Of a stretch of DNA of 64,000 nucleotides, positions 6,754-55,642 are shown one piece after another. The DNA comes from Parcubacteria bacterium C7867-006 (GTDB taxonomy: Bacteria; Patescibacteriota; Minisyncoccia; Phycocordibacterales; DATDWN01). The stretch's first letter is position 1. Every line of letters begins with the position of its first letter. The stretch spans positions 133,618 through 197,617 of the forward strand of contig LFCP01000004.1 of the NCBI GenBank assembly GCA_001189155.1. The letters are read 5' to 3'. The translations under genes and the position numbers were made by a program. Under the pieces are notes generated by a model. That model was given only the letters and a program-made list of their open reading frames with translations, was not told the origin of the DNA and did not search any database.

Positions 6754-6787
6754 AAAAAACGATAGGCCCGTCCGAAGACGGGCCTAT
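6754..6787 (-). terminator. GC-rich hairpin ATAGGCCCGTC-CGAA-GACGGGCCTAT with a T-run on the minus strand
   Basis: 11-bp perfect stem. The minus-strand reading is followed by TTTTTT. It sits 18 nt after the stop of ORF 6805-7188. Confidence 0.75.
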
Positions 6788-6804
6788 TTAGTGCCGACTA
6801 ACTG

Positions 6805-7188
6805 CTACGTGAGAAGGCGCAAGAGCTTCCTCAAACCATCGCGAAACCTCCTGCGAGTCATCCGGTCGACCGAGGTGAGTTCCTCGGGAAGTATCGTTCC
6901 GCTCACCCTCGACGAAAACGAAAAACCATGAATCCCCAGGAACCGTTCAACAGCAATGATCACTGAACGACGACACGAGCCAAGGAGTGGGTAGACCTCG
7001 ATGATCATCTTCACCTCATCCTTGGTCAGACCCTTTGCGACTCGGTAGGGACTGAAGAACATGTGAAGCACTCCAGCCTCCTTCTTGGAGAGCCGATAGC
7101 GCTTCCTGTAGCGATCCAGAACACCGTCTTGCGCGTTCCGGAGTCTTGCTTCCGAAAATTTCTTCAACTTGATCACTCGCTCCTCCAT
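6805..7188 (-). CDS. GC-rich ORFan (second gene of a two-gene cassette)
   Basis: 127 aa. Its ATG lies 1 nt after the TAG of the upstream ORF (translational coupling). The composition is far more G+C-rich than the flanks. No family recognised. Confidence 0.55.
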   Translation of the reverse strand: MEERVIKLKKFSEARLRNAQDGVLDRYRKRYRLSKKEAGVLHMFFSPYRVAKGLTKDEVKMIIEVYPLLGSCRRSVIIAVERFLGIHGFSFSSRVSGTILPEELTSVDRMTRRRFRDGLRKLLRLLT

Positions 7189-7189
7189 T

Positions 7190-7540
7190 CTAGCTCTGAA
7201 TCTGCCCGACTTCAGCAGCCATGGCCTCCTCGTGTTTCCTCATCTCATCGGCTGCTGCTCGGAAGAACACCTTCAGGCCATCAGGATCCTTCTCCTCGCG
7301 AATCTCATCAGCAACCCAGGAGAGATCGCTCGACGAAAGCCCGAGATCCGGCAGAGCAGTCTTTCCGCTCTTCAGGATTTCTCTAGCTTTCTCGAAACGT
7401 TCCCTTCTCGCATGTAATTCACGACGAGCCAGCCTGAGACCTCCGGGAAGGAACTCGTTCAGGTAGGTGCGCACGGCCTTGCCCACACACATGTGAGCCA
7501 CTCCGCGAAGCAACTCATCTGTTAGTTGGTTGTCGCTCAT
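7190..7540 (-). CDS. GC-rich ORFan (first gene of a two-gene cassette)
   Basis: 116 aa. A G-rich SD-like CCGGGGG lies 7 nt upstream of the ATG, with an AT-rich TTGATT-N17-ATAGTT promoter-like sequence further upstream. Line 7201-7260 is 36/60 G+C. Confidence 0.55.
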   Translation of the reverse strand: MSDNQLTDELLRGVAHMCVGKAVRTYLNEFLPGGLRLARRELHARRERFEKAREILKSGKTALPDLGLSSSDLSWVADEIREEKDPDGLKVFFRAAADEMRKHEEAMAAEVGQIQS

Positions 7541-7639
7541 TTGGTACCCCCGGACACAACTATATAATTATCAAAACATAAATCAAGTATTAATTTAACC
7601 TTGATTTCAAATCACTCTGAATAAGTTATAATACCTCCT

Positions 7640-8200
7640 ATGCAAACATCAATCATTATCCATGGTATGCCATCAAAACAGGAATACCTGAACCCCGAGT
7701 TCCCTTCTGCATCAAATGCACATTGGTTCCCTTGGATACAAAAACAACTAACAATTAAAGGTATTTTGGCTCAAACTCCAGAAATGCCAGAGCCATATGA
7801 CCCTGACTATAAAAAATGGAGTGAGGTTTTTGAACAATTCAAATTAAATCAAGACACAATACTCATCGGACATAGTTGTGGAGGTGGATTTCTTGTTAGA
7901 TGGCTTGGCGAACACAAGGTAAAAGTCGGAAGGGTCGTGCTTGTTGCACCATGGATAGATCCTAAACACGAATACCCTAAAATGTTTGACTTTGAAGCGG
8001 GAGATATTTCTGACAGAGCTGACAGCGTGCATCTGTTTATATCTTCGGATGATGATAAAGAAGAGCTAGATTCAGCTGAAATTTTAAAAGCTAAAATTTC
8101 AAATCTTAAAGTACATCATTTCAACGACAAAGGTCATTTTATAACAGACCACATGAAGACTAATGAGTTTCCAGAATTGCTCGAGATCGTTTTAAGTTAA
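7640..8200 (+). CDS. Alpha/beta serine hydrolase, RBBP9/YdeN-like
   Basis: 186 aa. The nucleophile elbow is GHSCGG. The gene is preceded by TATAAT (7627-7632) and 7 nt. Confidence 0.65.
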   Translation: MQTSIIIHGMPSKQEYLNPEFPSASNAHWFPWIQKQLTIKGILAQTPEMPEPYDPDYKKWSEVFEQFKLNQDTILIGHSCGGGFLVRWLGEHKVKVGRVVLVAPWIDPKHEYPKMFDFEAGDISDRADSVHLFISSDDDKEELDSAEILKAKISNLKVHHFNDKGHFITDHMKTNEFPELLEIVLS

Positions 8201-8202
8201 CT

Positions 8203-8211
8203 TGCTATAAT
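8203..8211 (+). promoter_or_regulatory. Extended -10 (TGcTATAAT) 6 nt upstream of ATG 8218; implies a leaderless mRNA
   Basis: Read directly from the sequence. There is no SD between the -10 and the ATG. Confidence 0.55.
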
Positions 8212-8217
8212 ACCCTA

Positions 8218-8727
8218 ATGGAATCAGCCCCAAAACTATTTAATCCCGAAACAAGTCCCCTCCGCGAAGCTTATGAACTACTGGGAGCAACAACCCCACT
8301 AGAGCTACACCGTCTTTATAGTGAACAAGACCAGATACTAATGAAGTCTGGTAAGTGGGATTATGAAAATCCAGACCTTGTAGTTAACAGAGTGAAAGAA
8401 ATTTTAGAATCAGTTAAACCTGGAGAACTGACAGAAGATGAAATGGAGTGGAGAAACGAAATACTTTGGTTCTGGTATCATCACGCTATTAGCTGTGCTA
8501 TCGGAAGATACAAAGACAAAGAAGCAGCTAAAAAATATTCTGCACACGCATTGGCAATTCAATCAGAAAATCATCCTAACAAAATTACTAAACTCTTGGA
8601 TTTATTAGTAAACGACAAACTTGAAGAAGCAGAAGCTTGGGCAAAAGCAATACAAGAAGAACCAGAGAAAGAAACTGCGCAATTTTTATTAGAGGAATAT
8701 AGATCTGGAAACTTTTTTCTAAACTAA
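8218..8727 (+). CDS. Hypothetical helical protein
   Basis: 169-aa ORF with native AT-rich composition. Confidence 0.5.
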   Translation: MESAPKLFNPETSPLREAYELLGATTPLELHRLYSEQDQILMKSGKWDYENPDLVVNRVKEILESVKPGELTEDEMEWRNEILWFWYHHAISCAIGRYKDKEAAKKYSAHALAIQSENHPNKITKLLDLLVNDKLEEAEAWAKAIQEEPEKETAQFLLEEYRSGNFFLN

Positions 8728-8728
8728 C

Positions 8729-9175
8729 ATGCTCCCACTCGAAATATTCTACATTTATTTCTCTCCATATACAGCACATGCAATCGAAATCGATGGGGTT
8801 GTCTATCCTACTCTCGAACATGCATATCAGTGCGCAAGATACACTGACCCCAAAATAATTGCTGAAATAATTTCAGCAAAAAGCCCAGTCAAAGCTTGGA
8901 AGGCTTCTTCAAAATATAAACACCTGCAAATACCTGAATTCAAAACTGGAGAACACAAATTAAAAATTATGGAAAAGTTAATGAGACTGAAAACAGAACA
9001 ACATGAGGAAATACAAAAAGCTCTCATTGACTCTGGAGATTTAGAAATAGTAAAACATATCGTGACTCCTCCACCAGGAGATAGTTTCTGGGACGATGGT
9101 GAAGATGGTAAGGGGCTAAACCATATAGGCAAAATCTGGATGAAAATAAGAGAAGGACTCATTGACGCGACATAA
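8729..9175 (+). CDS. NADAR (YbiA/DUF1768) family protein
   Basis: FSPYTAHAIEIDGVVYPTLEHAYQCARY matches the NADAR core pattern. Confidence 0.65.
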   Translation: MLPLEIFYIYFSPYTAHAIEIDGVVYPTLEHAYQCARYTDPKIIAEIISAKSPVKAWKASSKYKHLQIPEFKTGEHKLKIMEKLMRLKTEQHEEIQKALIDSGDLEIVKHIVTPPPGDSFWDDGEDGKGLNHIGKIWMKIREGLIDAT

Positions 9176-9232
9176 TTTAAGTGTTAATTTAACGAACAGA
9201 TTTGCCCTACCTACCTGGGCAGAAAGGATCCG

Positions 9233-9508
9233 ATGAATCAGCGGGCTATCAGAAAGCTTCCATTTCCACCGGCGAGTCACTTCACATTGGAAATGGTCAG
9301 GCAGATCAAGGCAATCCCTGATGAGGAAATCAGTTACTCCGAACAAGAGATTGTCTGGATGGAACTGGCAATTCAGAATCTTGAGTACATGATTGCCTGT
9401 GCGAAATCACTCGGCATCAAGACGACCGAGATGGATGAGCACAAGGCTCTGTACGAGGCAGTCATTACCAAGAACAATAACCTGACCGCCTCAGACCGCT
9501 CACGCTAA
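9233..9508 (+). CDS. GC-rich ORFan cassette
   Basis: 91 aa. SD AAAGGA lies 5 nt before the ATG. It is followed by the GC hairpin GACCGCTCACGC..GCGTGGGCGGTC. No family recognised. Confidence 0.5.
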   Translation: MNQRAIRKLPFPPASHFTLEMVRQIKAIPDEEISYSEQEIVWMELAIQNLEYMIACAKSLGIKTTEMDEHKALYEAVITKNNNLTASDRSR

Positions 9509-9540
9509 ATTTTGCGTGGGCGGTCAATTGTTTTATATTT

Positions 9541-9549
9541 TGCTATAAT
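9541..9549 (+). promoter_or_regulatory. Extended -10 (TGcTATAAT) 6 nt upstream of ATG 9556 (leaderless)
   Basis: Read directly from the sequence. Confidence 0.55.
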
Positions 9550-9555
9550 AACTCT

Positions 9556-9852
9556 ATGAAAAAACCATTTTTACATGCCTTAGCAGCGGCACTATACATA
9601 GTTGCTATAGTCCTCATCGCAGAGAGAGTTGGTAATGCATTAAAAAACCAACCTGACACCATAGTCATTCCAATGACCATGCTCAGTCTTTTTGTTCTAT
9701 CCGCAGCCATCATGGGATACATTTTTCTATCTGAACCACTACAGTTACTTATTGAAGGAAAGAAAAAGGAAGCCATCGCTTTCTTCTCAAAAACTGTTGG
9801 TTTCTTTGCGTGTTTTGTTTTAATTTACACAATAATTCTTTTCCTCGTCTAA
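9556..9852 (+). CDS. Small membrane protein (3 predicted hydrophobic helices)
   Basis: 98 aa and strongly hydrophobic. Confidence 0.5.
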   Translation: MKKPFLHALAAALYIVAIVLIAERVGNALKNQPDTIVIPMTMLSLFVLSAAIMGYIFLSEPLQLLIEGKKKEAIAFFSKTVGFFACFVLIYTIILFLV

Positions 9853-9930
9853 ACTCAGTTTAATAACAATTTAATAAATCTTATCATTATTCGTCTTCTG
9901 CAGTATACAAATTAGCGATATAATATTTAT

Positions 9931-10212
9931 ATGAAAAATAAAAACATAGTTATTTCTCTATCAATAATATTTGCATTAGCATTAATAGGTTATTTCTTTT
10001 TTTACAACAAATCAGCACAAAATACAAAAAACCCAAACTCAACAGCAAAAATAAATATAGAAGCCGTTTGCCAAGGTGCACTAGCATATATGACATTCCC
10101 TGACTCAAAAAGTGCAGACATTTATGTAGAGGAGTGTATAGAAGGTAAACATCCAGAAGTAATAGAACGCTATAAAGCATCTTTGAATCTTGATGCTGGA
10201 GTAGCTATATAA
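9931..10212 (+). CDS. Small membrane-anchored or secreted protein
   Basis: 93 aa with an N-terminal hydrophobic helix. TATAAT (9919-9924) lies 6 nt before the ATG. Confidence 0.45.
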   Translation: MKNKNIVISLSIIFALALIGYFFFYNKSAQNTKNPNSTAKINIEAVCQGALAYMTFPDSKSADIYVEECIEGKHPEVIERYKASLNLDAGVAI

Positions 10213-10233
10213 TTTAAATCTCATACAAGATTT

Positions 10234-10242
10234 TGGTATAAT
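10234..10242 (+). promoter_or_regulatory. Extended -10 (TGgTATAAT) 6 nt upstream of ATG 10249 (leaderless)
   Basis: Read directly from the sequence. The string TATAATAACTAAATG is nearly repeated at 10644-10658. Confidence 0.55.
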
Positions 10243-10248
10243 AACTAA

Positions 10249-10587: not shown

Positions 10588-10640
10588 AGGATCTCCAAAA
10601 AACTTGAAAAACAAAAGCCCCTAACGGGGTTTTTGTTTTT

Positions 10641-10649
10641 TGATATACT
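10641..10649 (+). promoter_or_regulatory. Extended -10 (TGaTATACT) 6 nt upstream of ATG 10656 (leaderless)
   Basis: Read directly from the sequence. Confidence 0.5.
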
Positions 10650-10655
10650 AACTAA

Positions 10656-11574: not shown

Positions 11575-11603
11575 TTGACATTATAGTTAAAATGTGATAT
11601 TAT
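11575..11603 (+). promoter_or_regulatory. Sigma70-like promoter TTGACA-N17-TGaTATTAT for the GC-rich glycosyltransferase cassette
   Basis: The -35 is at 11575-11580 and the -10 at 11598-11603. A ~35-nt leader follows, with AGGAG 6 nt before ATG 11643. Confidence 0.55.
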
Positions 11604-11642
11604 TGTACTAGAAGAACATTGAAACCTTTCACAGGAGAGACG

Positions 11643-12653
11643 ATGTCTACGACTGAAGGCCTAGAGGCCCCGCTCGTCACGATACTCGTCCCCTGCTATC
11701 AGTACGGACGGTATCTACGCAATTGTCTGGAAGGAATTTTCGCCCAGACAATCATCGACCAAATATCGGTTGAAATCATCGTCATCAACGATGCATCAAC
11801 CGACAACACTGACGCTGTTATGCGTGAGTTCACGGACCCGCGTATTCACTACATCCGCCACGACAGAAACCGTGGACTCTGCTACACACTGTCAGAAGGA
11901 CTCACCCTCGCAAGAGGTAAGTACTTTACTCGGATTGACGCGGACGACAGATGGAAACCTCACTTTCTGGAAGTAACACTTCCTGAGCTTGAGAGATACC
12001 CTGATGTTGCTCTCGTCTTCGGTGATGTTGCCCATGTTGATGAACAAGGAAACATCATCAACGAGGAAAGTACAATCGCTCGCTCACTTGAGGTTCACGG
12101 CGATCGTGATTTCAAGGGAGACAGATTTCTTTCACAAGTCGGCGAATGCACAATCGGCACCGCTGGTGTGATAGGAAGAACCGAAGCTTGGCGTAAGGGC
12201 CTACCTTTCCCCAAATGCTTTACTTGGGAGTCCCCGTCTGACTGGTGGCTGAACATCATGGCCATCAGAGATGCAGACGTGTACTACAAGAAGGGTATTC
12301 TTGGGGAATACCGCATGCACAGTGCGAGTATGACCCACCAACAAGGTAGTGTTGATGCGGTCGATATTGAACAGACCACCATCGGCGCTATCAATGAAGC
12401 GTTTAGCGGGGTAAATCTGAAAAGAGAACACCGCCTTGCGCGACGCATGATCTACGCCAACGCATGGACCACCCTCGGGAATATCAATTTCGAAAAAAAC
12501 CGAGGTAAAGATTCGAGGAGGTGCTACGCCAACGCAGTGCTCTGGCGACCGGACTATGTTTTAAGAAAGTCCATCGCTCGACACTTCCTGTCGAGTCTCC
12601 TGCCTCGGAAACTGTACGAGAAAATAAAGAAAGGGGTGAAGAAAATGTTCTGA
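11643..12653 (+). CDS. Family 2 glycosyltransferase (GC-rich cassette)
   Basis: Motifs are ILVPCYQ.., NDASTDNT and RIDADD. The start is set at ATG 11643 after AGGAG. Line 11701-11760 is 30/60 G+C. Confidence 0.8.
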   Translation: MSTTEGLEAPLVTILVPCYQYGRYLRNCLEGIFAQTIIDQISVEIIVINDASTDNTDAVMREFTDPRIHYIRHDRNRGLCYTLSEGLTLARGKYFTRIDADDRWKPHFLEVTLPELERYPDVALVFGDVAHVDEQGNIINEESTIARSLEVHGDRDFKGDRFLSQVGECTIGTAGVIGRTEAWRKGLPFPKCFTWESPSDWWLNIMAIRDADVYYKKGILGEYRMHSASMTHQQGSVDAVDIEQTTIGAINEAFSGVNLKREHRLARRMIYANAWTTLGNINFEKNRGKDSRRCYANAVLWRPDYVLRKSIARHFLSSLLPRKLYEKIKKGVKKMF

Positions 12654-12685
12654 GCCGACCAACGCTAACGCGAAGGTCGGCTTTT
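12654..12685 (+). terminator. GCCGACC-N14-GGTCGGC followed by TTTT
   Basis: The hairpin starts directly after the stop TGA at 12651-12653. Confidence 0.7.
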
Positions 12686-12697
12686 ACTATATAGAAA

Positions 12698-13780: not shown

Positions 13781-13809
13781 AAAGTGCCTCCTGGACAGAG
13801 GCACTTTTT
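13781..13809. terminator. Bidirectional hairpin GTGCCTC-N7-GAGGCAC flanked by A- and T-runs
   Basis: 7-bp stem located 20 nt after the stop of ORF 13830-14150 (minus strand). Confidence 0.6.
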
Positions 13810-13829
13810 CGTGCAGAACGAAGAACAAA

Positions 13830-14150
13830 TTACCCCTTTCGGTGGCCGTTGTCATGGCGATTGTTATCCAGACCCAGATCGATTCGCCTGGACCGAGGCA
13901 GTCGAGGGGCCTCGGTCTGAGGATGACCAAGTGGCTTGACCTTGCTGAGCTCTTGAAGCCCAGCAAAGATCAACTTCCTGACTTCATGACGGGAGGGTTC
14001 GTGCTCGAACATCTTCTTGAACTCCCTGAACAGGAATTCGGGAGTCTCACTGACCAACTTCTTCTGACAGTCCTCGCACACTCCATAATGGCCACTGGTG
14101 AACTTCGGGTCCTCATACAAATGATTACCCTCAACACACATCAAAACCAT
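13830..14150 (-). CDS. GC-rich ORFan cassette (Cys/His-containing N-terminus)
   Basis: The start is set at ATG 14150 (MVLMCVEGNH..) with GAGGGGG 6 nt upstream. The promoter is TTGACT (14204-14209)-N18-TATTCT with TGn. The opposite-strand ORF 13776-14180 lacks comparable signals. Confidence 0.5.
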   Translation of the reverse strand: MVLMCVEGNHLYEDPKFTSGHYGVCEDCQKKLVSETPEFLFREFKKMFEHEPSRHEVRKLIFAGLQELSKVKPLGHPQTEAPRLPRSRRIDLGLDNNRHDNGHRKG

Positions 14151-14220
14151 TGGAACCCCCTCTACACAATCCTTACTTGAGAATATCATATTCAAAAAAC
14201 ATGAGTCAATTTTTTTATAT

Positions 14221-18939: not shown

Positions 18940-19022
18940 ATTTCAGATTGTAACAGAATTTTTTATATATGAGAATAGCCGGTCGCCCGGCTATTTTAAT
19001 CATCTCACCCCCCTTTGCTCGT

Positions 19023-19268
19023 TTAAACTTTCTTGTACCTACCAACAAGTTCGGACTTGATGGCGTACACAACGCCACCATCGCCAATAGTCCGCATTGG
19101 CACAACAAACATTCTCTTCGTGCTCTCGTCATTCGGGTTGATCCTCACCTCCTCTTTCCTCTGTCTTTGAATCTCGACAGTGGTTCCAGAATACCAAACA
19201 CCGATCCAGACGAGCTCTCTCAAGCGCTCTCTGTAAACAGAGATGTCGTCGGTAAGTCTAACAATCAT
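19023..19268 (-). CDS. GC-rich ORFan cassette
   Basis: 81 aa. AGGAG lies 5 nt before the ATG, TTGACA lies upstream, and the hairpin AGCCGG-GCGA-CCGGCT lies downstream. No family recognised. Confidence 0.5.
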   Translation of the reverse strand: MIVRLTDDISVYRERLRELVWIGVWYSGTTVEIQRQRKEEVRINPNDESTKRMFVVPMRTIGDGGVVYAIKSELVGRYKKV

Positions 19269-19337
19269 AAAGTCTCCTGATAATTAGGTTACCTTTTTAA
19301 ATAGTGGTGTCAATTATTTTGCTATACTATATATATT

Positions 19338-20192: not shown

Positions 20193-20233
20193 TTTTTTAT
20201 TTCACGTATAAATAATGTAGAACTGGAGGGTTC

Positions 20234-20500
20234 ATGATACTCGCACTTGAAAAAATGTTGGTCGATGTCCCGATTTCTGCTGGAGACAGACTGCAGTGGA
20301 ACAACGAAGGTAAGTTTATCACTGCTCAGGCGCAAAGTGGGAAACCACTCTACTGGCACGGCAACCAGCTGAAGAAGATGGCTAGCTGGCTGCGGAGCGA
20401 CGAACAGTTCGACAGCTATGTGATGATTCTGGCAGAAATACTGAATCTCAAGGCTGTCCTCGTTGAAGGTGAACGTCACAGGACTTATCGATTTGAGTGA
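20234..20500 (+). CDS. GC-rich ORFan cassette
   Basis: 88 aa. GGAGGG lies 4 nt before the ATG. The promoter is TTGAAA-N17-TATAAA and a GC hairpin CGGCTCCGCGC..GCGCCGGAGCCG follows. Preferred over the antisense ORF 20180-20515, which lacks an SD. Confidence 0.5.
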   Translation: MILALEKMLVDVPISAGDRLQWNNEGKFITAQAQSGKPLYWHGNQLKKMASWLRSDEQFDSYVMILAEILNLKAVLVEGERHRTYRFE

Positions 20501-20614
20501 TGTTCTTTCGCTCACACACGGCTCCGCGCAACACTGCGCCGGAGCCGTTAAACTTTATAAAAAATAATATGTTAAATTGGACAAAATTTATTTTTATAGT
20601 AATACTAGATAGCA

Positions 20615-28219: not shown

Positions 28220-28298
28220 ATAAAACCAATATAACATATTTTAATATAAAGTTCAGGGCCGACAAACACTAGCGCTTGTCGGACCCTGACTGCAGTCA

Positions 28299-28814
28299 TT
28301 ACCCCTTCTTCAGAACTAATCTTGGCAAATTCTGAGTAATGGGTAGAGACACAAGTGTCTTTGCTTTGTACAACCTGAAAGCTTCTTGGCGATTGCCATC
28401 AAGAAGATTCGAGATCCTTATGCCGAGTCTCGAAACAGCCTGAGGTTTCGCTTGGGTGGTCGAAGGATAGCACAGAAAGGTAGCATCGTCGTGCACAGGC
28501 TCTGCTCCATATCCAAGTGTACGCAAAGCAGTGCACAAACAGAATGCAAGCCTCTCAGCCCTAGCAAACACAGGGCTAGTTGCGTATCCAATTGGATGAA
28601 TTTCGTTCGCGAGCCAGACGATGCTGAAGTCATCTTTCAGCTTACCGTCAACCTTTCTCTTTGAGGCAACTTGCGCTGCGTTGAAGACCTTCTTCTCGAG
28701 CTTAAAATTCAGCTGGAGAGATGGTTGAAGTCGAAGCTTGTGCCACTCCTTCACTCCCACTTCAACAAACTTGTTCCATTCATCGCTACCAACTGCTCGC
28801 ACCCAGTATTTCAT
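28299..28814 (-). CDS. GC-rich ORFan cassette
   Basis: 171 aa. AAGGAG lies 8 nt before the ATG and the GC hairpin GGGCCGACAA..TTGTCGGaCCC lies after the stop. Wedged between tRNA-Leu(CAA) and miaA. Confidence 0.55.
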   Translation of the reverse strand: MKYWVRAVGSDEWNKFVEVGVKEWHKLRLQPSLQLNFKLEKKVFNAAQVASKRKVDGKLKDDFSIVWLANEIHPIGYATSPVFARAERLAFCLCTALRTLGYGAEPVHDDATFLCYPSTTQAKPQAVSRLGIRISNLLDGNRQEAFRLYKAKTLVSLPITQNLPRLVLKKG

Positions 28815-28868
28815 TTCGCAATCTCCTTGCCGAAATAACCTGTCCGTTGTACAGTTTGTCTTATTAAA

Positions 28869-29795
28869 ATGAAAAAATCAAGTTTTAAAAATAATCCAAT
28901 AAAACCTAAAATACTAGTTATCCTTGGTCCAACAGCCACAGGCAAAAGTGACCTAGCTGTTAAACTCGCTAAAAAATATAATGGTGAGATTATTTCTGCT
29001 GATTCAAGACAAGTATACAAAGGTTTAGATATCGGCACAGGAAAAATCACTAAAAAAGAGATGCTAGGGATTCCGCACTACATGCTAAACGTCATATCTC
29101 CTAAAAAAGTATTCTCTGTTTCTGATTTTCAAAAACTAGCTAATGCAAAAATAGAAGAAATAATTTCAAAAGGAAAACTCCCTATAATAGTTGGAGGAAC
29201 AGGATTCTATATTCAATCAATCGTAGATGGAATAGTTCTACCAGAAGTTCCTCCAAATAAAAAACTCAGAAAAGAATTAGAGAAAAAAAATATTGATGAG
29301 TTAGTTTTAATGCTAGAAAAAATTGATAAAGAAAGACTAAAAAATATAGATAAAAACAACCCTGTACGACTGATAAGAGCTATTGAAATAGCAGAAAAAC
29401 TTGGCTCTGTGCCAAAGATAAAAACACAAAAAAGTAACTATGATTTTATACAAATCGGTCTTAACCTCCCAGAGGGAGAAATAAAAGAAAAAATACACAA
29501 AAGACTCCTAGCAAGAATTAAAAAAGGAATGATGAAAGAAGCAGAGAAAATTCATAAAAATGGCTTATCCTGGAAACGTATGCGAGAACTAGGACTTGAG
29601 TATCGATACCTGGCAGATTTTCTGGAAAAAATAATAGACCAAAAAGAACTCATTAATAAACTAGATTCCGAGATATATCATTACAGCAAAAGACAGATGA
29701 CTTGGTTTAAAAAAGATAAAAAAATTAAATGGTTCAATCCAAAAAATTTATTAAATATAGAAAAATTTGTTAATAACTCATTGATTAATAACTAG
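28869..29795 (+). CDS. miaA: tRNA dimethylallyltransferase
   Basis: GPTATGKS.., ISADSRQVYKGLDIGTGK. Confidence 0.9.
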   Translation: MKKSSFKNNPIKPKILVILGPTATGKSDLAVKLAKKYNGEIISADSRQVYKGLDIGTGKITKKEMLGIPHYMLNVISPKKVFSVSDFQKLANAKIEEIISKGKLPIIVGGTGFYIQSIVDGIVLPEVPPNKKLRKELEKKNIDELVLMLEKIDKERLKNIDKNNPVRLIRAIEIAEKLGSVPKIKTQKSNYDFIQIGLNLPEGEIKEKIHKRLLARIKKGMMKEAEKIHKNGLSWKRMRELGLEYRYLADFLEKIIDQKELINKLDSEIYHYSKRQMTWFKKDKKIKWFNPKNLLNIEKFVNNSLINN

Positions 29796-29827
29796 CAATA
29801 TAGTAAAAATAAAAAAGGAGGACCGAC

Positions 29828-29929
29828 ATGCTCGAGATCCTTGGTAAATCAGTTCTCGCTCTGGTAGCGTTCTGGCCATTCTGGGTTACTCCACTGGCGA
29901 TAGTCTTCGCCTGCAGGCGAACTCAGTAG
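29828..29929 (+). CDS. GC-rich 33-aa hydrophobic peptide (MLEILGKSVLALVAFWPFWVTPLAIVFACRRTQ)
   Basis: AAGGAGG lies 7 nt before the ATG. One TM-length hydrophobic stretch has a basic C-terminus. The GC hairpin GCCCCGTG..CACGGGGC follows at about 29949-29975. Confidence 0.4.
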   Translation: MLEILGKSVLALVAFWPFWVTPLAIVFACRRTQ

Positions 29930-30021
29930 AACGACTCCACAGTTGTATGCCCCGTGACCTACCTAGGCACGGGGCACCGTTTTGCCTAAAGGTAAAAAAT
30001 CCTGTAGGATTGAACAAATAA

Positions 30022-30313: not shown

Positions 30314-30363
30314 AGTTTTAATAAATTACCAGAAAAGAGACTAAAATGCAAGGTTTATAAAGT

Positions 30364-30398
30364 AAAAAGCCGTCCGAGTAAAAGTAACCTCGGACAGG
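30364..30398 (-). terminator. CCGTCCGAG-N10-CTCGGAC(A)GG hairpin with a T-run on the minus strand
   Basis: Located 22 nt after the stop of ORF 30420-30626. Confidence 0.6.
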
Positions 30399-30419
30399 CC
30401 TTTCACTCTTGGACAGACT

Positions 30420-30626
30420 TCAGAATTCGAAGATTGGACGCGGGATGAGGATCTGCTCTGTTCCAGCGACCCTCATAGAGATGTGCTTTTCACCACCACA
30501 GTGTCGAAAGACGACAACACCGCGAGTGTTGTCTGGGTCGTTCTGCACATAAACGACAGTGCAGTTGTTGACCTTGTCACCAACTTGAAGCGAGCTCCAC
30601 TGATCGCTGGACATCTCGTTAGACAT
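30420..30626 (-). CDS. GC-rich ORFan cassette
   Basis: The start is set at ATG 30626 (MSNEMSSDQW) with GGAGG 5 nt upstream. The promoter is TTGACT-N17-TAACAT. 68 aa, no family recognised. Confidence 0.5.
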   Translation of the reverse strand: MSNEMSSDQWSSLQVGDKVNNCTVVYVQNDPDNTRGVVVFRHCGGEKHISMRVAGTEQILIPRPIFEF

Positions 30627-30710
30627 CGCGGCCTCCAAAATTGTTCCAACTATTATGTTAGTTCTAAAAAAGTTACTAGTCAACAAAAATCCCCTTGCGG
30701 GGAATCTTTG

Positions 30711-39375: not shown

Positions 39376-39444
39376 GTACAGAAACTGTAAGTTTCGAGAT
39401 TCTCCCCTTGCTAATTATTCCTGACCGAGTCTCCCCTTACCCCC
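39376..39444 (+). repeat. Partial second element (P3 GAAAC-TGTAA-GTTTC plus a tRNA-3'-end-like CGAGATTCTCCCCTTGCTA) and a third tRNA-3'-end-like copy (CCGAGTCTCCCCTTACCCC)
   Basis: Compare with the tRNA-Leu(TAG) 3' end TCGAGTCTCCCCTTGCCCA. Confidence 0.55.
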
Positions 39445-39448
39445 CCAC

Positions 39449-39477
39449 TTGACAGATACCACATAATGTATTACTGT
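39449..39477 (+). promoter_or_regulatory. TTGACA-N17-TACTGT promoter-like sequence for the GC-rich ORF 39495
   Basis: It starts 5 nt after the last tRNA-3'-end-like copy. Confidence 0.4.
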
Positions 39478-39494
39478 ACAACGCAGGAGCACCT

Positions 39495-39707
39495 ATGACA
39501 CACAACGAGATTGTCACTCTGATGAGGAGCAGTCGCTCTCCAGAGGAGTGGAAAAGCAATGAGGAGAGAGTGAAAGCTCACTTCTCTGGAAGTCTACCCT
39601 CTTTCTGGTACGGACTGATCGTTCAGTCCGAGGTGGCCAAGAAAACAAAAGCTTCATGGCCAAAACCACGACCCACACAACCCAAACGGCCGAGCCTGTG
39701 CCGCTGA
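39495..39707 (+). CDS. GC-rich ORFan cassette
   Basis: 70 aa. AGGAG lies 6 nt before the ATG, and a GC hairpin plus T-run lies after the stop. Confidence 0.5.
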   Translation: MTHNEIVTLMRSSRSPEEWKSNEERVKAHFSGSLPSFWYGLIVQSEVAKKTKASWPKPRPTQPKRPSLCR

Positions 39708-39805
39708 CACACCGAGCCGCCGAGTTCCGAGAGGAACCCGGCGCTTTCTTATTTTTTTGAATAAACAAAAACCACTTGTAAAAGTGGTTTTTGTTTATTC
39801 AACTA

Positions 39806-43318: not shown

Positions 43319-43402
43319 CAGTAAGAACTTAAAGCTATGTAAAAGTAATAAAAAATATAAAAAATATCCTTGTTTTTGGCTGTTTTTTGTTGTATAAAAA
43401 AC

Positions 43403-43431
43403 TTGACTTTTCTATTTTTATGTGATAGAAT
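43403..43431 (+). promoter_or_regulatory. TTGACT-N17-TGaTAGAAT promoter for the GC-rich two-gene module
   Basis: The -35 is at 43403-43408 and the -10 at 43426-43431. A ~65-nt leader follows, with AAAGGA before ATG 43503. Confidence 0.6.
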
Positions 43432-43502
43432 TATAAGCAGATGAGGATAGGCATCCTGCCGACCTCTCAGAACATTGACATCTGCATGAAAGGAAAAAGA
43501 AA

Positions 43503-44834
43503 ATGTCTGGACTAACGATGCTGTCGCTCGTCTTGACGGCACTGTTTCTCCTCTTCGCATTCTACCAGTCGAGGCCGAGCAAAACAGCCAAACCTGAAGA
43601 AGGACAAGAGAAGAAGTCGTCAAACGAACGACACAACCTTTGGTATCACCTGGGGTTCGTCGATGACACACCGAACCTGATTCGTCAGGTCGTCGCTGGA
43701 AGCGCAAAAAGCGGCCGGCCGATCAGGTACTTTGGGAACCTGCACGACGGGGTTATTGATGAGGCCACTGGCATCATTACATCCAACCCTAACCCACCCC
43801 TCCTTTCGGAGGGTTGGTTCCTGAATTTGATCAGGAAACACTTCGGCAAACGCTGGTGTCGCATTCCGATCATCCAGCATGTGAAGCCTTTGACGATTGA
43901 CCGGGTGGTCAGCAAGGACACCAAGTCAACTGTCAACGAACTCTCCGATGAACTTGACGCCTCAACAGTCGTCAAGGAAGGTCTCTACCGACTGATTCTT
44001 CGCCCAACCCTTCACAAGGATGTTGACGCGAAGAACAACATCCGGTTTAGCGTAATCAGTTACGCTGTTCTGGAAGTGTTCGACGCCAAACCGGCGTTCA
44101 ACATCTACCCGGACAGCTACTTGATCACTGTCAGCAAACTGATCTCTGCTTATCTTTCGAAGAATACCTTCAAACTTTCGTACGATGAGTACAAAGAGCG
44201 AGGGAACTCCTTCGAAAAAGAGCAGATCGATGAGTTGAACGGCGTGCTTCTCAGTCTGGGAATTCGGTGCAAGGAACTTCGTATGGGCGACCCTGAACTC
44301 AACAAGAGTGTTCAGGAAAGCCTTGAAAAAGAAGCCAAGGCTGAACAAGAAGCCAAGGCTCAGAAACGAAAGGGTCAGGGCCAAAAAGACTACGATACTC
44401 TCGTGTCCGAAGGCCAGTCCCAAGCAATCAGGAATCTGGCTGCCGCCAAGGCATCCAGGTTCTCTGAACTCATCAACCTCTACAAGAACGAAGGCTTGAC
44501 TGGGTCTGAAGCAGTGGACAGAGCAAATGCAATGATCTCAGCCGAGTTCAACGCAGATGCTGTTCGACAGCTTCAAGGAACCTACGTCGCTTCAGGTAAC
44601 GGCGTTCAACTTGCCGTTATGGAGAGAAGACCAAGTGCAACTACAAGTTCGACTACCGAAGCTGCAGCTCAAGCAGCGCCTACTGGCAGTCAGTCAGTGG
44701 GCCAGGCCTCGGCTCAACCAGCTCAACCTGTGGCTCAAAAGCCTATGGCTCCGAGCACAACCCAGGCTGGTCAGACTCCGCATCAGAATCAAGGCAGGGG
44801 TCACAAAGACAAGGGCCGCCGCAACAAGAAATAA
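43503..44834 (+). CDS. GC-rich membrane-anchored protein with an SPFH/band-7-like core and a low-complexity Ala/Gln/Pro/Thr tail
   Basis: N-terminal TM helix. LGIRCKELRMGDPELNKSVQESLEKEAKAEQEAKAQ and downstream GQSQAIRNLAAAKA resemble SPFH C-terminal blocks. Line 43561-43620 is 30/60 G+C. Confidence 0.45.
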   Translation: MSGLTMLSLVLTALFLLFAFYQSRPSKTAKPEEGQEKKSSNERHNLWYHLGFVDDTPNLIRQVVAGSAKSGRPIRYFGNLHDGVIDEATGIITSNPNPPLLSEGWFLNLIRKHFGKRWCRIPIIQHVKPLTIDRVVSKDTKSTVNELSDELDASTVVKEGLYRLILRPTLHKDVDAKNNIRFSVISYAVLEVFDAKPAFNIYPDSYLITVSKLISAYLSKNTFKLSYDEYKERGNSFEKEQIDELNGVLLSLGIRCKELRMGDPELNKSVQESLEKEAKAEQEAKAQKRKGQGQKDYDTLVSEGQSQAIRNLAAAKASRFSELINLYKNEGLTGSEAVDRANAMISAEFNADAVRQLQGTYVASGNGVQLAVMERRPSATTSSTTEAAAQAAPTGSQSVGQASAQPAQPVAQKPMAPSTTQAGQTPHQNQGRGHKDKGRRNKK

Positions 44835-44949
44835 ACGGTCCAACACCATCGTTGCGGTCATTGCGATCATCACGCTGATTATCGCGAAGATCGCAACTAG
44901 CGTCTTCCACTTTCTGTCGGAGATTGGTCTTTGGTTCAAAGCGGAAGCT

Positions 44950-45825
44950 ATGAACTACTATCAAACTCCCAGTGGTGGACTGATTAGCAAGGTAATACTG
45001 GTGGTTCTCCCGGTTGCATCATTTGCGCTTGCGTACGTGATGTATCGGAGGAACCATCCAACTTCTCCGAGGTTCAAATATCGTAGTAGCCGAAGTTCGA
45101 AAGACTTCGCCGCTGCTGTGATGATGCCGTTTGGCCTGGCCATCGGCGTCGGAATCCTCTGGGGAGTTGTGTACTTCCTGGCTTGGGGGCCTGGAATTCT
45201 GCACTACTTCTCTTTCCCTATCTGGGGAAAAGCGGAAGCTAGGATGAGCACTCCAACCAACAGTGGCTTCGTCGACAAAAACGAAGTCCACCGTCGGACG
45301 GGAGAGTTCTGGTATTCCAACTTGCCACCGACCGAGGCCAAGGAGATGCTCGACATCGCCACGGAAGAGTCACATTTCCAGCAATTCAACACTGATGGGA
45401 GTGTCTTCACCGGCGTGGACGACCCAGCCGACACGGGCGTGATGCAAATCAACGTCCGTGAGAACCAGAAAGACCTGATAGCGTGGGGGCTCAACGTCAA
45501 CACTCTCGAAGGAAATCTGGAAGCGGCCAAAAGGCTTCGTCAGAAATACGGCACGAAGCCTTGGCAACGGACGGTGGATAAAATCAAAAACCGTCCGTCG
45601 CAGATAATCACCATCAAGGTGCCAAAGGAAGGTCGCAGTGAAAGGTTTACCCCCGACGGCAGATTCTGCCAGGGTCAAACCGATCTTCCAGTCACCGTAT
45701 GGGACGACAAAGGTAGGAGCCACCCAATGACTCCGACCAGCGTTCCAACTGTTCCGTCGTTGTGGTATGAGTACTCCACTCCAAGTGGAGGCTCACTCCC
45801 AACGATCACCATTTCATGCAGGTAA
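44950..45825 (+). CDS. GC-rich membrane-anchored lytic transglycosylase (SLT-domain) protein
   Basis: Catalytic block TEESHFQQFN and GVMQINV. The start is set at the first ATG after the upstream stop. The ORF-track start 44557 would overlap the upstream gene by 278 nt. Confidence 0.6.
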   Translation: MNYYQTPSGGLISKVILVVLPVASFALAYVMYRRNHPTSPRFKYRSSRSSKDFAAAVMMPFGLAIGVGILWGVVYFLAWGPGILHYFSFPIWGKAEARMSTPTNSGFVDKNEVHRRTGEFWYSNLPPTEAKEMLDIATEESHFQQFNTDGSVFTGVDDPADTGVMQINVRENQKDLIAWGLNVNTLEGNLEAAKRLRQKYGTKPWQRTVDKIKNRPSQIITIKVPKEGRSERFTPDGRFCQGQTDLPVTVWDDKGRSHPMTPTSVPTVPSLWYEYSTPSGGSLPTITISCR

Positions 45826-45831
45826 CGCAAA

Positions 45832-45866
45832 GCGCGGAGACCCTTCGGGGCCCTCCGCGCTTTTTT
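45832..45866 (+). terminator. GCGCGGAG-N13-CTCCGCGC followed by TTTTTT
   Basis: Located 6 nt after the stop TAA at 45823-45825. Confidence 0.8.
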
Positions 45867-45886
45867 CATATCTGAATTTTGTGTTG

Positions 45887-53265: not shown

Positions 53266-53270
53266 TTTTA

Positions 53271-53912
53271 TTAAATAGCTTCAAGAATAACGATCTCACC
53301 TTCTTTACCCTCAACATCTTTTCTTTTTATGGTTAATTTATCTATAGGTTTTACTCCCTCTTCTCCAGATTCTTTCAAAAACTTTTTAAGAGCATCTTTT
53401 TCGCCAACATCTCCAAAGTGGCTAGGTATTATGATTTTTGGTTCAAACTGTACAGCTAGTTTGTGAGCAGTGGCTGAATCTAGAACATTATCTCCTCCAA
53501 TAGGAACAAACAAAATATCAACTGACTCTAAACCTTCTTTTGCTTCAGAAGAAAGCTTTTCATCAGAAAGAGCACCGAGAAAACCGAGATTAATCCCTTC
53601 AAGTGAAACTGTATATACAGTATTTATATGCTCTTTACCTCCGTATGTAGAACCAGACAAAAAACCCTTTATGAAAACACCCTGAACTTCGTACTCGCCA
53701 GGACCTTGGATAACAAAGGACTCTTTTTCTCCACGAGAAGTCTGCTCAACTCCGTTGTGCTCAGGTGAGTTTATAGAGACCAAAGTTATATCGCTTCCGA
53801 ACTTTGTTGATTTAAGTTTTGAATCTTTTGAAATAGGATTTACAGCAATAGTTGTATCTCCGAATGAAACTTTGAAAAAATCTGCTCCGTGGTATGTGAT
53901 TATCATACCCAC
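53271..53912 (-). CDS. MBL-fold hydrolase-like protein (UPF0173-like)
   Basis: 213 aa with a beta-lactamase-fold pattern. The canonical HxHxDH is degenerate. Confidence 0.55.
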   Translation of the reverse strand: MGMIITYHGADFFKVSFGDTTIAVNPISKDSKLKSTKFGSDITLVSINSPEHNGVEQTSRGEKESFVIQGPGEYEVQGVFIKGFLSGSTYGGKEHINTVYTVSLEGINLGFLGALSDEKLSSEAKEGLESVDILFVPIGGDNVLDSATAHKLAVQFEPKIIIPSHFGDVGEKDALKKFLKESGEEGVKPIDKLTIKRKDVEGKEGEIVILEAI

Positions 53913-54068
53913 AGTGTAGCAAAAAACCTATACATTTCAAATGTATTGCAAAATGGGCATTTTTGGGTATACTTACTCTCTGTATATTAATAGCCGCAAT
54001 AGGACTTAACCTCGACCCATCCGGACACAGTAGTTAGGGATTGAAAAGCCTGGAGCACATATACTAAA

Positions 54069-55199
54069 ATGGCAAAAGCACAAGTTATTGAGGAGGAAAT
54101 AATGGAGGAGGCTGAAGTAAGTAAAAAGACTAGCACTATGGACAAAGTCCTAGATGCATCATCAAATCCCCCATCTATCGACGACGTAGTCGAAGGTAAA
54201 GTTATAGGTATAGAGAAATCAGCAGTTTATATAGATATACCACCTTTTGGAACTGGTATTATTTTTGGACGTGAGTATATAAATGCACGAGACATTATAA
54301 AGAAAATTAACGTCGGAGACTCTGTTGCAGGTAAGGTTGTTAGTATTTCTAACAAAGACGGTTACATAGAGATATCTCTAAAGGAAGCTAGACAAGCTCT
54401 AATCTGGTCAGAAGCAGAGGATGCTATCAGAGACAAGAAAATCTTTGAACTTCCTGTACAGGAAGCAAACAAAGGAGGACTTATCCTTTCATGGCAAGGT
54501 ATTTCTGGATTCCTTCCAGCTTCACAGCTTAAAACAGAGCACTATCCACGAGTTTCAGACGGAGACAAAGATAGAATTCTAGAAGAGCTAAAGAAACTAG
54601 TTGGTCAGAAAATCTCTGTTGCTATAATAGGCGCTTCTCCAAAAGAAGGTAAACTTATCTTCTCAGAGAAGAACCCTGAACAGAAAAACAAAGACTACAT
54701 AATCGGTAAATACCAGCTTAACGACGAAGTTATGGGTGAAGTTACAGGAATGGTAGACTTTGGTGTATTCGTAAAGCTTGAGGAAGGTCTAGAAGGTTTA
54801 GTACACATTTCAGAGATAGACTGGGCACTAGTTGAAAACCCAAAACTTCTATTCCATATCGGAGAGAAAATCAAAGTAAAAATTATTGAAATCAAGGACG
54901 GAAAGATATCTCTATCTATCAAGGCTTTGAAGGAAAATCCTTGGAAAGACGCAGAAAAGAAATACAAAAAGGATGACGTTGTTGAGGGTGTTGTTATTAA
55001 ATTCAACAAACATGGAGCTCTTGCTTCTATTGAAGAAGGTATAGCAGGACTCGTTCACATATCAGAGTTTGGATCAGATGAGAAACTTCATGATGCACTA
55101 GAACTTGGGAAAAACTACAAGTTCAAAATAACAATGTTTGATGCAAAGGAACAAAAAATGACACTTTCATTTGTTGATCCTAATAAAAAAGCTGAGTAA
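54069..55199 (+). CDS. rpsA: 30S ribosomal protein S1 (four S1 domains)
   Basis: Repeated G.V..v..fG.FV.l...GL.HiSE blocks. Upstream lie TTGCAA-N16-TATACT and a ~100-nt leader. Confidence 0.85.
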   Translation: MAKAQVIEEEIMEEAEVSKKTSTMDKVLDASSNPPSIDDVVEGKVIGIEKSAVYIDIPPFGTGIIFGREYINARDIIKKINVGDSVAGKVVSISNKDGYIEISLKEARQALIWSEAEDAIRDKKIFELPVQEANKGGLILSWQGISGFLPASQLKTEHYPRVSDGDKDRILEELKKLVGQKISVAIIGASPKEGKLIFSEKNPEQKNKDYIIGKYQLNDEVMGEVTGMVDFGVFVKLEEGLEGLVHISEIDWALVENPKLLFHIGEKIKVKIIEIKDGKISLSIKALKENPWKDAEKKYKKDDVVEGVVIKFNKHGALASIEEGIAGLVHISEFGSDEKLHDALELGKNYKFKITMFDAKEQKMTLSFVDPNKKAE

Positions 55200-55223
55200 T
55201 TAAAAAATATTCAGATAGCAGAT

Positions 55224-55251
55224 AGGGCGGCCCGTGAGGACCGCCCTTTTT
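55224..55251 (+). terminator. AGGGCGG-N10-CCGCCCT followed by TTTT
   Basis: Lies after the rpsA stop. Confidence 0.7.
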
Positions 55252-55270
55252 GTGTTAATCGAGTGAGGAA

Positions 55271-55591
55271 TCAATCGTTTTCGCGTTCGAACTCGTCGTC
55301 CTTATGATCCTTCCGACGCTTTTTCTCGACCGACAGTTTCTTTCGCTCGAGGATCTGGACGAGTTGTTCCGCCATCTCCTTGTGGTGTGATGGCAAACGA
55401 CTCGGCCAACTCTCAAGCCTAGAATGTACGAGAGCGATGAGCTCGTCGTGACCGGTCCGAATATCGAGCCTCATCATGAACCTCATGAAGTGGAATTCGA
55501 TACCCGTATCGATAGAAGCCGTTCGCATCTCCTTGATGAACGCCTCCGAAATCGAAAGCTCCTCGTCATCCTCAGACACTCGCTGCGCCAT
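55271..55591 (-). CDS. GC-rich ORFan cassette (acidic/basic helical protein)
   Basis: The start is set at ATG 55591 (MAQRVSEDDE) with AAGGAG 6 nt upstream. The promoter is TTGACT-N16-TACTCT. 106 aa. Confidence 0.5.
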   Translation of the reverse strand: MAQRVSEDDEELSISEAFIKEMRTASIDTGIEFHFMRFMMRLDIRTGHDELIALVHSRLESWPSRLPSHHKEMAEQLVQILERKKLSVEKKRRKDHKDDEFEREND

Positions 55592-55642
55592 ATGTACTCC
55601 TTCAGTCTGCCAGAGTAACACTTTAATCGATTTAGTCAATTT

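Follow-up and report, generated by a model that had tools for sequence, protein, structure and literature searches.

The window analysed here is a stretch of 64 kb from Parcubacteria bacterium C7867-006 (assembly GCA_001189155.1, contig LFCP01000004.1, positions 133,618 to 197,617), a metagenome-assembled genome (MAG) of 652 kb and 36% G+C from the Hanford aquifer (Nelson and Stegen 2015, PMC4508563). Its backbone is made of AT-rich core genes, among which 12 G+C-rich blocks (B1-B12) are scattered within 49 kb; the blocks hold 14 open reading frames (ORFs), two each in B1 and B11, which total 6423 bp or 10% of the window. A sequence-only reading of this DNA had described the blocks as compositionally foreign, self-contained expression cassettes and had likened them to the morons of phages. 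As it had stated, their neighbours are core genes (dnaX, serS, dprA, topA, miaA, rpsA and pth), that is, chromosomal housekeeping genes and not those of a prophage; some of the cassettes lie near tRNA genes, without repeats.

The G+C content of the window is 37.0%, with the backbone near 0.35, and the stretches that reach 0.45-0.57 in the G+C profile match the coordinates of B1-B12. At third codon positions, the G+C content (GC3) is 0.49-0.66 in the 14 block ORFs (median 0.60) and 0.18-0.46 in a comparison set of 60 backbone ORFs (median 0.24), two ranges that are fully separate (Mann-Whitney U=840, p=7e-9). The first and second codon positions (GC1 and GC2) are raised in the block ORFs as well, C3+G3 is 0.59 against 0.24 in the backbone, NTA codons (ATA, TTA, CTA, GTA) are nearly unused, and Arg makes up 7.9% of residues compared with 3.7% in the backbone, while Lys and Ile are lower. 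The G+C profile, the GC3 separation and the codon usage thus bear out the contrast between AT-rich backbone and G+C-rich blocks that had been drawn from counts by hand; four of these five 60-nucleotide (nt) counts were exact (18/60, 20/60, 36/60 and 30/60), and the fifth, at 11701-11760, is 29/60 rather than 30.

The promoter, Shine-Dalgarno (SD) and terminator architecture that had been proposed can be recognized in the sequence of all 12 blocks. Each begins in AT-rich DNA with a -35 of the TTGA(C/T/A) type, followed after ~17 nt by a -10, continues with a G+C-rich leader of ~25-70 nt in which a GGAG, GAGG or AGGA motif stands 5-10 nt 5' of the ATG, and closes with a G+C hairpin and a T-run. 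The rise in G+C spans approximately the interval from the transcription start to the terminator, and the promoters are AT-rich. Terminator-like sites number 32 against an expected 13.8+-4.3 and are strongest at the cassette ends. Promoter-like sites show no overall enrichment in this AT-rich DNA (57 versus 52); what argues for promoter function is therefore their position, together with conservation of the B3, B4, B5 and B11 promoters in relatives. By these features, the cassettes appear to be autonomous transcription units, each with its own promoter and terminator.

B1 (6762..7586, minus strand) has its predicted promoter at ~7559-7586 and its hairpin at 6762-6787; the two abutting ORFs between them, 7190-7540 (B1a, 116 amino acids) and 6805-7188 (B1b, 127 amino acids, Arg-rich), have GC3 values of 0.61 and 0.66 and no match in Pfam, PHROGs or PADLOC. 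B2 (9160..9525, plus strand) comprises a putative promoter, a leader, an ORF at 9233-9508 (91 amino acids, GC3 0.62) and a terminator at 9494-9525 with a 12-bp stem. In B3 (11575..12690, plus strand), the promoter at 11575-11603 (TTGACA-17-TGnTATTAT) is the top match within the scanned positions 6000-25999, and it is followed by an AGGAG SD, an ORF at 11643-12653 (336 amino acids, GC3 0.55) and a terminator; the product is a GT2 glycosyltransferase, as had been noticed from the sequence (Pfam PF00535, E=5e-29). B4 (13785..14209, minus strand) carries a putative promoter at 14180-14209, a GGGGG/GAGG SD, an ORF at 13830-14150 (106 amino acids, GC3 0.64) and a terminator. B5 (18960..19315, minus strand; ORF 19023-19268, 81 amino acids, GC3 0.57) fills the gap between serS and dprA, back-to-back with the dprA promoter and with its terminator abutting the serS promoter. 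The next gap, between dprA and topA, is occupied by B6 (20195..20565, plus strand), which has a GGAGG SD, an ORF at 20234-20500 (88 amino acids, GC3 0.56) and a terminator.

B7 (28240..28865, minus strand; ORF 28299-28814, 171 amino acids, GC3 0.49) is divergent from miaA and adjoins tRNA-Leu. Its AlphaFold2 model is confident (predicted local distance difference test score 84.7), and the fold has no match in the PDB at E<0.001; a resemblance to the Alba-like Pop7/Rpp20 is too weak for a function to be assigned from it. B8 (29790..29975, plus strand) encodes a hydrophobic peptide of 33 amino acids at 29828-29929 between an AGGAGG SD and a terminator. In B9 (30350..30690, minus strand), a TTGACT promoter right after the tRNA-Tyr terminator is followed by a GGAGG SD, an ORF at 30420-30626 (68 amino acids, GC3 0.61) and a terminator. 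An independent Logan contig, L003, contains a B9 of identical sequence, and the B8 ORF is called as a gene there too. B10 (39440..39765, plus strand) has a TTGACA promoter, an AGGAG SD, an ORF at 39495-39707 (70 amino acids, G+C 0.52) and a terminator; just 5' of the promoter, CGAGTCTC(C) occurs four times in ~120 nt (39320-39440, plus strand), perhaps as an array of protein-binding sites. B12 (55215..55660, minus strand), between rpsA and pth, is a singleton at 90% identity clustering; it has a TTGACT promoter, an AAGGAG SD, an ORF at 55271-55591 (106 amino acids, GC3 0.66) and a terminator.

The B11 operon (43400..45870, plus strand) is preceded by a putative promoter, TTGACTTTT..TGATAGAAT, and a leader of ~70 nt, and ends at a terminator. 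Its first gene, B11a (43503-44834, plus strand, 443 amino acids), encodes an SPFH/Band_7-like membrane protein, an assignment already made from the sequence and now supported by a weak Band_7 match (E=3.7e-7); the second, B11b (44950-45825, plus strand, 291 amino acids), encodes a membrane protein. B11b had been called a lytic transglycosylase, and this identification is rejected, as its sole basis was a likeness by eye to an ES...GVMQIN motif and sequence searches of Pfam and the PDB were negative. Five tandem paralogues of T4SS_pilin (PF18895), of native AT-rich composition, adjoin the operon at 46211-48399 on the minus strand, and the arrangement of pilin array and SPFH operon is kept in at least five other lineages.

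The block ORFs are real coding genes because they show the order GC3>GC1>GC2 (in 12 of 14, with GC3 the top position in 13), because two of them carry the Pfam domains just described, and because B6 differs from its orthologue at ~13 synonymous and 3 non-synonymous sites; B6 is under purifying selection. An Rfam search of the whole window at gathering thresholds returned 9 tRNAs and nothing else, none of which accounts for the blocks, and the Rfam and tRNA searches rule out a structured-RNA reading of the ORF-bearing blocks. Mis-assembly at the block edges, which had been named as a possible flaw, is excluded because an independent Logan assembly (SRR2043728) is 100% identical over 3000 nt that include three cassettes and their junctions, and because orthologous cassettes occur in MAGs of other projects.

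The backbone genes differ from the cassettes in their starts, a contrast that was absent from the sequence-only reading. No SD precedes 51 of 57 backbone genes, and many backbone genes have a TATAAT or TATACT box 6-9 nt 5' of the ATG, as is typical of leaderless mRNAs. The same holds in relatives, for which we fetched the corresponding loci (numbered L006-L147): a 5-mer SD was found for 1 of 171 core genes in loci with AT-rich cores, 0 of 35 in intermediate loci and 1 of 48 in G+C-rich loci, and a -10-like box stood just 5' of 121, 24 and 37 of these genes, respectively. Across the window and the fetched loci, this box lies mostly 4-16 nt before the start codon of core genes, which suggests leaderless or SD-independent translation of the core throughout the clade. 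The SD-less core genes fit the report by Tsurumaki et al. (2022, PMC9297842), in which just 48% of the 16S genes from Parcubacteria had a detected anti-SD motif. Ribosomal RNA was looked for in the fetched loci and none was present. In the literature searched, we found no account of core genes in this clade being leaderless or lacking an SD, nor of the G+C-rich cassettes.

When topA was scanned across GTDB, with one genome for each species, the organism fell among Zambryskibacteria-, Nomurabacteria- and Kaiserbacteria-like Paceibacteria, with at most 92% amino-acid identity; a dprA scan of metagenomes supplied 49 further loci. For at least seven of the 14 ORFs (B1a, B3, B5, B6, B7, B11a and B11b), other Paceibacteria carry a homologue in the same or a comparable place; all cassette homologues detected lie in Paceibacteria contexts, and those measured are G+C-rich there also. 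The close relative L095 (GCA_020049755.1), whose serS and dnaX products are 93% and 86% identical to those of the window, carries orthologues of B3, B5 and B6 at identical positions with GC3 values of 0.51-0.60, compared with 0.22-0.34 for the core. The B3 orthologue stands beside dnaX in L095 and L096 (62% amino-acid identity, GC3 0.55) and keeps its SD in a diverged leader, and B5 is 68% identical to its orthologue in L095. B6 is 97% identical in amino acids and 94% in nucleotides to the L095 copy, while the dprA between B5 and B6 is 88% identical in amino acids. At the same position, L100 carries an allele of 33% identity although its dprA is 93% identical to that of L095. The 90%-identity cluster of B6 has four members from other assemblies. 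In L095 (16461-16686), the B6 terminator is separated from the topA promoter by an extra insertion of ~113 nt that the window lacks. In the B4 slot of L095, the same promoter and dnaX-side flank surround a different G+C-rich cargo of ~230 nt without a long ORF.

The more distant homologues present the same picture. B7 has just five homologue clusters among 1.84 billion representatives (28-41% identity); its homologues stand beside miaA and tRNA-Leu in L097, L098 and L019, with a GC3 of 0.44-0.49 against 0.21-0.26 for the core in L097 and L098. Homologues of the B11 proteins have 41-65% amino-acid identity, and the operon lies beside a T4SS-pilin array, with its promoter conserved, in L086/87, L090, L091, L093 and L094 at 42-48% identity. 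In all five lineages its GC3 exceeds that of its own backbone (for example, 0.64/0.61 versus ~0.32 in L090 and 0.37/0.46 versus 0.16-0.23 in L094). A B1a homologue of 42% identity occupies a similar position in L020. No homologue was found for B1b, B2, B4, B8, B9, B10 or B12, whose slots most of the fetched loci do not span.

Where present, the core genes follow the order dnaX-dus-(folD)-x-serS-dprA-topA-relA-parB-murB-murA-miaA-L33-clpB, and the gaps between them range from ~40 nt to more than 1 kb in relatives and are often richer in G+C than the core. Among ~50 relatives, the serS/dprA gap is either empty (25-136 nt) or filled (330-700 nt), in the latter case mostly by one minus-strand ORF of 65-113 amino acids, with a few relatives carrying longer inserts. 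The dprA/topA gap is likewise empty (34-80 nt) or filled (350-1000 nt) by one ORF, mostly of 68-101 amino acids and on the plus strand in most relatives. The occupants of the dprA/topA gap belong to at least five phmmer families plus singletons, and the B5 family (motif ..lPf..nG..YYvle.E) recurs in both gaps that flank dprA. One and the same core-flanked interval thus appears with differing contents, empty states included, which is the behaviour of a hot spot. In L010 (5491-6117) and L016 (5616-6245), a G+C-rich ORF of 208 amino acids (66% identical between the two) lies between dus and a gene of 295 amino acids, in the place of folD in the window; no match to folD was found in either locus.

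The similarity of the alleles does not follow that of the backbone. L095 and L100 share 93% identity in dprA and 33% in the cassette, L095 and the window 88% and 97%, L009 and L105 90% and 29%, and L101 and L111 79% and 66%; these pairwise identities of cassette versus dprA show allele similarity to be incongruent with backbone similarity. In relatives with AT-rich cores, an SD precedes 40 of 54 non-redundant gap ORFs, and GC3 exceeds that of the core by a mean of 0.20 in ORFs that have an SD and of 0.13 in those that lack one. The GC3 of the gap ORFs is ~0.5 whatever that of the core (slope -0.09+-0.17, intercept 0.53, n=54, for core GC3 of 0.2-0.5), and it ranges in relatives from the level of the core to 0.74. 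Some family members stand at core level (0.27 in L019 and 0.37 in L113), which fits turnover with partial amelioration.

Taken together, these results lead us to propose, with moderate confidence, that Zambryskibacteria-like Paceibacteria possess a clade-wide pool of accessory cassettes that occupy fixed intergenic slots and are exchanged between lineages. Small accessory genes, and one operon, would be kept as single, self-transcribed units between conserved core genes, with several unrelated or barely related families competing for one slot. Lineages would trade cassettes through homologous recombination within conserved flanking DNA (core-gene ends, promoters and terminators), and the incoming DNA would probably have been taken up by the cells; dprA is present in the organism. 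The composition of the cassettes would reflect that of the pool together with a force that keeps G+C high in place, most likely selection tied to SD-led, stably folded mRNAs or, alternatively, turnover faster than amelioration. The annotated cassettes are associated with the envelope (the GT2 glycosyltransferase, the SPFH scaffold with its membrane partner beside the pilins, and the hydrophobic peptide of 33 amino acids). Because these few are envelope-related and the others are small proteins that evolve fast and have several alleles in a slot, we infer that the cassettes may serve variable functions at the cell surface, in interaction with hosts or in conflict, and that diversifying or frequency-dependent selection may act on them.

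Several points weigh against this proposal. No G+C-rich reservoir is demonstrated, as the families of AT-rich genomes were not found in the G+C-rich relatives. Recombination is deduced from incongruence, and an old balanced polymorphism would give the same picture. The seven ORFs without detected homologues could be recent foreign captures. In addition, leaderless transcription and the function of the SD are deduced from sequence motifs.

An unlikely alternative is that the cassettes are native, vertically inherited and fast-evolving genes that are not exchanged, and whose G+C is held high by selection on the mRNA or on the mode of expression; they would form a separately controlled class that is leadered, SD-dependent and stably folded and uses codons rare in the core, within a genome that is otherwise leaderless and without SDs. 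The limits of the G+C rise, set near the transcription start and at the terminator while the promoters are AT-rich, agree with this alternative and point either to a property of the transcript or expression mode or to a G+C-richer reservoir. It is also consistent with the lack of a G+C gradient in the flanking core-gene ends, with the coupling of the SD to the cassette class, with the equilibrium composition of B3 and B5 considered below and with the conservation of the B11 promoter and leader across deep divergence. Per nt, the folding of cassette mRNAs is about twice as stable as that of core mRNAs, but this is because of their composition: z-scores against synonymous shuffles are alike (-1.9 for cassettes versus -1.6 for the core), and selection for specific mRNA structures is not indicated. 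Moreover, no known mechanism requires enrichment of a whole gene in G+C for SD-led translation, and both the incongruence of allele and backbone similarity and the members at core-level GC3 speak against purely vertical descent.

A further possibility, which we consider improbable, is the one closest to the sequence-only reading: recent, independent and unameliorated captures, moron-like, from a donor of higher G+C such as the host of an epibiont, its phages or phages of the candidate phyla radiation (CPR). The composition and codon usage of the cassettes resemble those of a genome of ~50-55% G+C, half of the ORFs are without a detected homologue among relatives, and the cassettes of relatives range in GC3 as if they were of differing ages. 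The same Hanford sample also holds Parcubacteria of 48-56% G+C (PMC4508563). However, the synonymous sites of B3 and B5 argue against this account. Identity between the window and L095 at four-fold degenerate sites is 0.43-0.47 for these two genes and 0.37-0.63 for backbone genes, while AT<->GC differences are balanced (34/33 in B3 and 12/9 in B5) at a GC3 of 0.51-0.57; simple amelioration since the split of the two lineages would need an ancestral GC3 near 0.85. Because their synonymous sites have diverged like those of the backbone and are still G+C-rich, with balanced changes, B3 and B5 do not look like unameliorated recent imports; their composition appears to be at equilibrium, or their alleles have been replaced from a G+C-rich pool, and neither corresponds to a decaying import.

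The comparison with relatives argues in the same direction. A recently acquired island should be absent from relatives, and B3, B5, B6, B7, B11a and B11b occur there at the same position and B1a at a similar one; such an island should also ameliorate as it diverges, and B11 orthologues at 42-48% amino-acid identity remain enriched in G+C. Conservation of the blocks with the same composition in relatives, the observation by which the sequence-only reading would have recognized old native genes, is thus found for at least six of the 14 ORFs, with B1a as a positional homologue in addition, and independent recent captures fail for at least half of the ORFs because the positional homologues stay G+C-rich. 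Nor is there a trace of a phage source: 10 small ORFs have no match in PHROGs, tblastn against 50,697 phage records gave generic GT2 matches only, three scans of IMG/VR yielded no homologue on viral contigs, and PADLOC found no defence system, its single match of 13.7 bits being at chance level. The absence of integrases, transposases and terminal repeats that had been noted is confirmed by a Pfam survey of the called genes of the window and of contig stretches from Joint Genome Institute (JGI) metagenome 3300001199 (contig J055_10000067, 121.7 kb), in which neither integrase nor transposase domains occurred, and by a comparison of filled and empty serS/dprA sites, which showed no target duplication and no terminal repeats. 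Of the original interpretation, the description of self-contained, compositionally distinct and horizontally exchanged units among core genes stands, whereas the phage moron and the many captures from a host or phage donor of higher G+C do not. It seems to us somewhat probable, from the sequence comparisons, that the cassettes are clade-native alleles at fixed slots and not recent captures from hosts or phages.

GC-biased gene conversion, by which biased repair of heteroduplexes at slots acting as recombination hot spots would lift their G+C, is very improbable. Exchange at the slots is in evidence, and a link between recombination and GC3 in bacteria is said to have been described by Lassalle et al. 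in 2015. Nevertheless, the boundaries are sharp, and spreading of conversion from the flanks is unlikely because core genes show no enrichment in the 40 codons nearest to a cassette (GC3 0.26 versus 0.25 in the rest). Furthermore, replacement of non-homologous cargo would put the heteroduplex in the flanks rather than in the cargo, and a shift from 0.24 to 0.60 far exceeds reported effects of such conversion. Finally, an artefact of chimeric assembly or of non-coding RNA genes misread as ORFs could be suspected, as G+C-rich islands of AT-rich genomes are often RNA genes, stop-poor G+C-rich DNA gives chance ORFs and two units at 14.2-14.76 kb are without ORFs, but the identical independent assembly, the orthologues in other MAGs, the Rfam result, the codon-position pattern, the domain-bearing ORFs of 443 and 336 amino acids, the selection on B6 and the confident B7 fold leave it next to no credit, and for the protein-coding blocks it is already refuted.

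A tentative extension, to which we give little weight at present, concerns the two modes of gene start. The AT-rich, SD-less and largely leaderless core and the G+C-rich, leadered and SD-bearing accessory pool might constitute two expression regimes, the second being a separate translational channel that itself keeps the cassettes rich in G+C and portable across genomes of different G+C. Such a channel could, for example, be engaged conditionally, rely on rare tRNAs or on the state of the ribosome, or guard against AU-directed RNA decay.

Several candidate RNA elements accompany the cassettes. Two units on the minus strand between dus and B4, at 14556-14758 and 14228-14547, each run from a promoter through G+C-rich DNA to a terminator without a convincing ORF, in agreement with the promoter-bearing non-coding RNA units that had been described at 14.2-14.76 kb. 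Their TTGACA promoters score 10/12 (at 14758 and 14547), their terminators lie at 14572-14556 and 14241-14228, and the predicted folding of a pseudo-ORF across both units is more stable than that of its synonymous shuffles (z=-3.7). Two analogous units occur in the corresponding dus/B4 gap of L095, and an Rfam search at E<=1 of 13700-14800 and of the L095 gap returned nothing meaningful; we regard the two units as candidate small RNAs. The leader of the SPFH operon (43430-43502) contains the motif GGCAATTCnGCC / TGCAATTCCGC, which is kept in L090, L093 and L094, lineages in which the SPFH coding sequences are just 43-48% identical, and which may be a cis-regulatory RNA element. A spacer of 209 nt 3' of serS (17447-17655, minus strand) has ~0.43 G+C, above the backbone, and no called gene; the L095 spacer is similar in length, and the spacer may be an RNA or the leader of the next gene. 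An element of ~90-130 nt is present in three copies, each beside tRNA genes, at 27988-28135 (plus strand), 38835-38930 (minus strand) and 39200-39335 (minus strand). Its core is TCGAtCCTTACAGGATCAGTACcc..ATTGGAT-[AT-rich 25-35 nt]-ATCTCAAnCGGGcTTCGAgTC, conserved copies occur in L010, L018, L019, L022 and L083, and it has no match in Rfam. An intron-bearing tRNA was considered and rejected, as ARAGORN with introns yields only poor tRNA-Val/Phe models, and the element is possibly a gene for a small or tRNA-like RNA.

Among known systems, the closest concept is that of a core-flanked integration hot spot or flexible islet, as reportedly set out in the hot-spot model of Oliveira, Touchon and Rocha and for the flexible islets of marine picoplankton. 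The cassette slots share with these the core-flanked intervals of differing content, the empty and filled states, the lack of a dedicated integrase and, as proposed here, the replacement via homologous flanks. They differ in being tiny (one ORF of 65-170 amino acids), in their density of 12 within 49 kb, in the private kit of predicted promoter, SD and terminator, in a mode of initiation unlike that of the core and in a G+C-rich composition that stays constant; the usual accessory gene is richer in A+T than the core. Morons of lambdoid phages are likewise single ORFs with their own promoter and factor-independent terminator, of atypical composition and set between conserved genes. The cassettes share the atypical composition and, by prediction, the autonomy, but they lie outside any phage or prophage among chromosomal housekeeping genes, have no matches to phage families and many positional orthologues, and their offset is towards G+C in an AT-rich genome.

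The PeSL-type modular cassettes in the hyperplastic regions of T4-type phages, reportedly described by Arbiol, Comeau and Krisch in 2010, also place small novel ORFs between a conserved promoter and a stem-loop and shuffle the cargo, to which the B4 slot of the window and L095 may be compared; here, in contrast, the setting is a cellular chromosome, and no long promoter or stem-loop repeat common to the slots was found. To our knowledge, no circular intermediates are known for the present cassettes. Integron cassettes are likewise small, mostly ORFan, single-gene mobile units in a shared pool, whereas the units described here have their own putative promoters and are scattered rather than arrayed; no integrase was found in the 64 kb of the window or in the stretches of contig surveyed, and no attC was seen, although no dedicated attC search was made. 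In Deinococcus, Mycobacterium and haloarchaea, in which leaderless translation dominates, core genes are similarly devoid of an SD, with a -10 box that precedes the start by a few bases, but in the present clade the SD-led minority coincides with a compositionally separate accessory class at hot spots, and no description of such a class was found in the searched literature.

Host dependence is presumed for bacteria of the CPR, or Patescibacteria, whose genomes are tiny, and the variation of their surface and interaction genes is poorly known. The present results point to dense and orderly single-gene slots between essential genes that carry alternative small proteins across species, and they call for caution in the detection of horizontal gene transfer, because atypical composition here does not mean recent foreign origin. 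If the pattern is true genome-wide, it would represent a natural case of accessory genes that are richer in G+C than the core, the reverse of the usual rule, and it would provide a test bed for the coexistence of leaderless and SD-dependent translation and for real loss of the anti-SD. The joint signature of GC3 and SD would then allow the flexible, and probably host- or phage-facing, part of the proteome of these organisms to be found.

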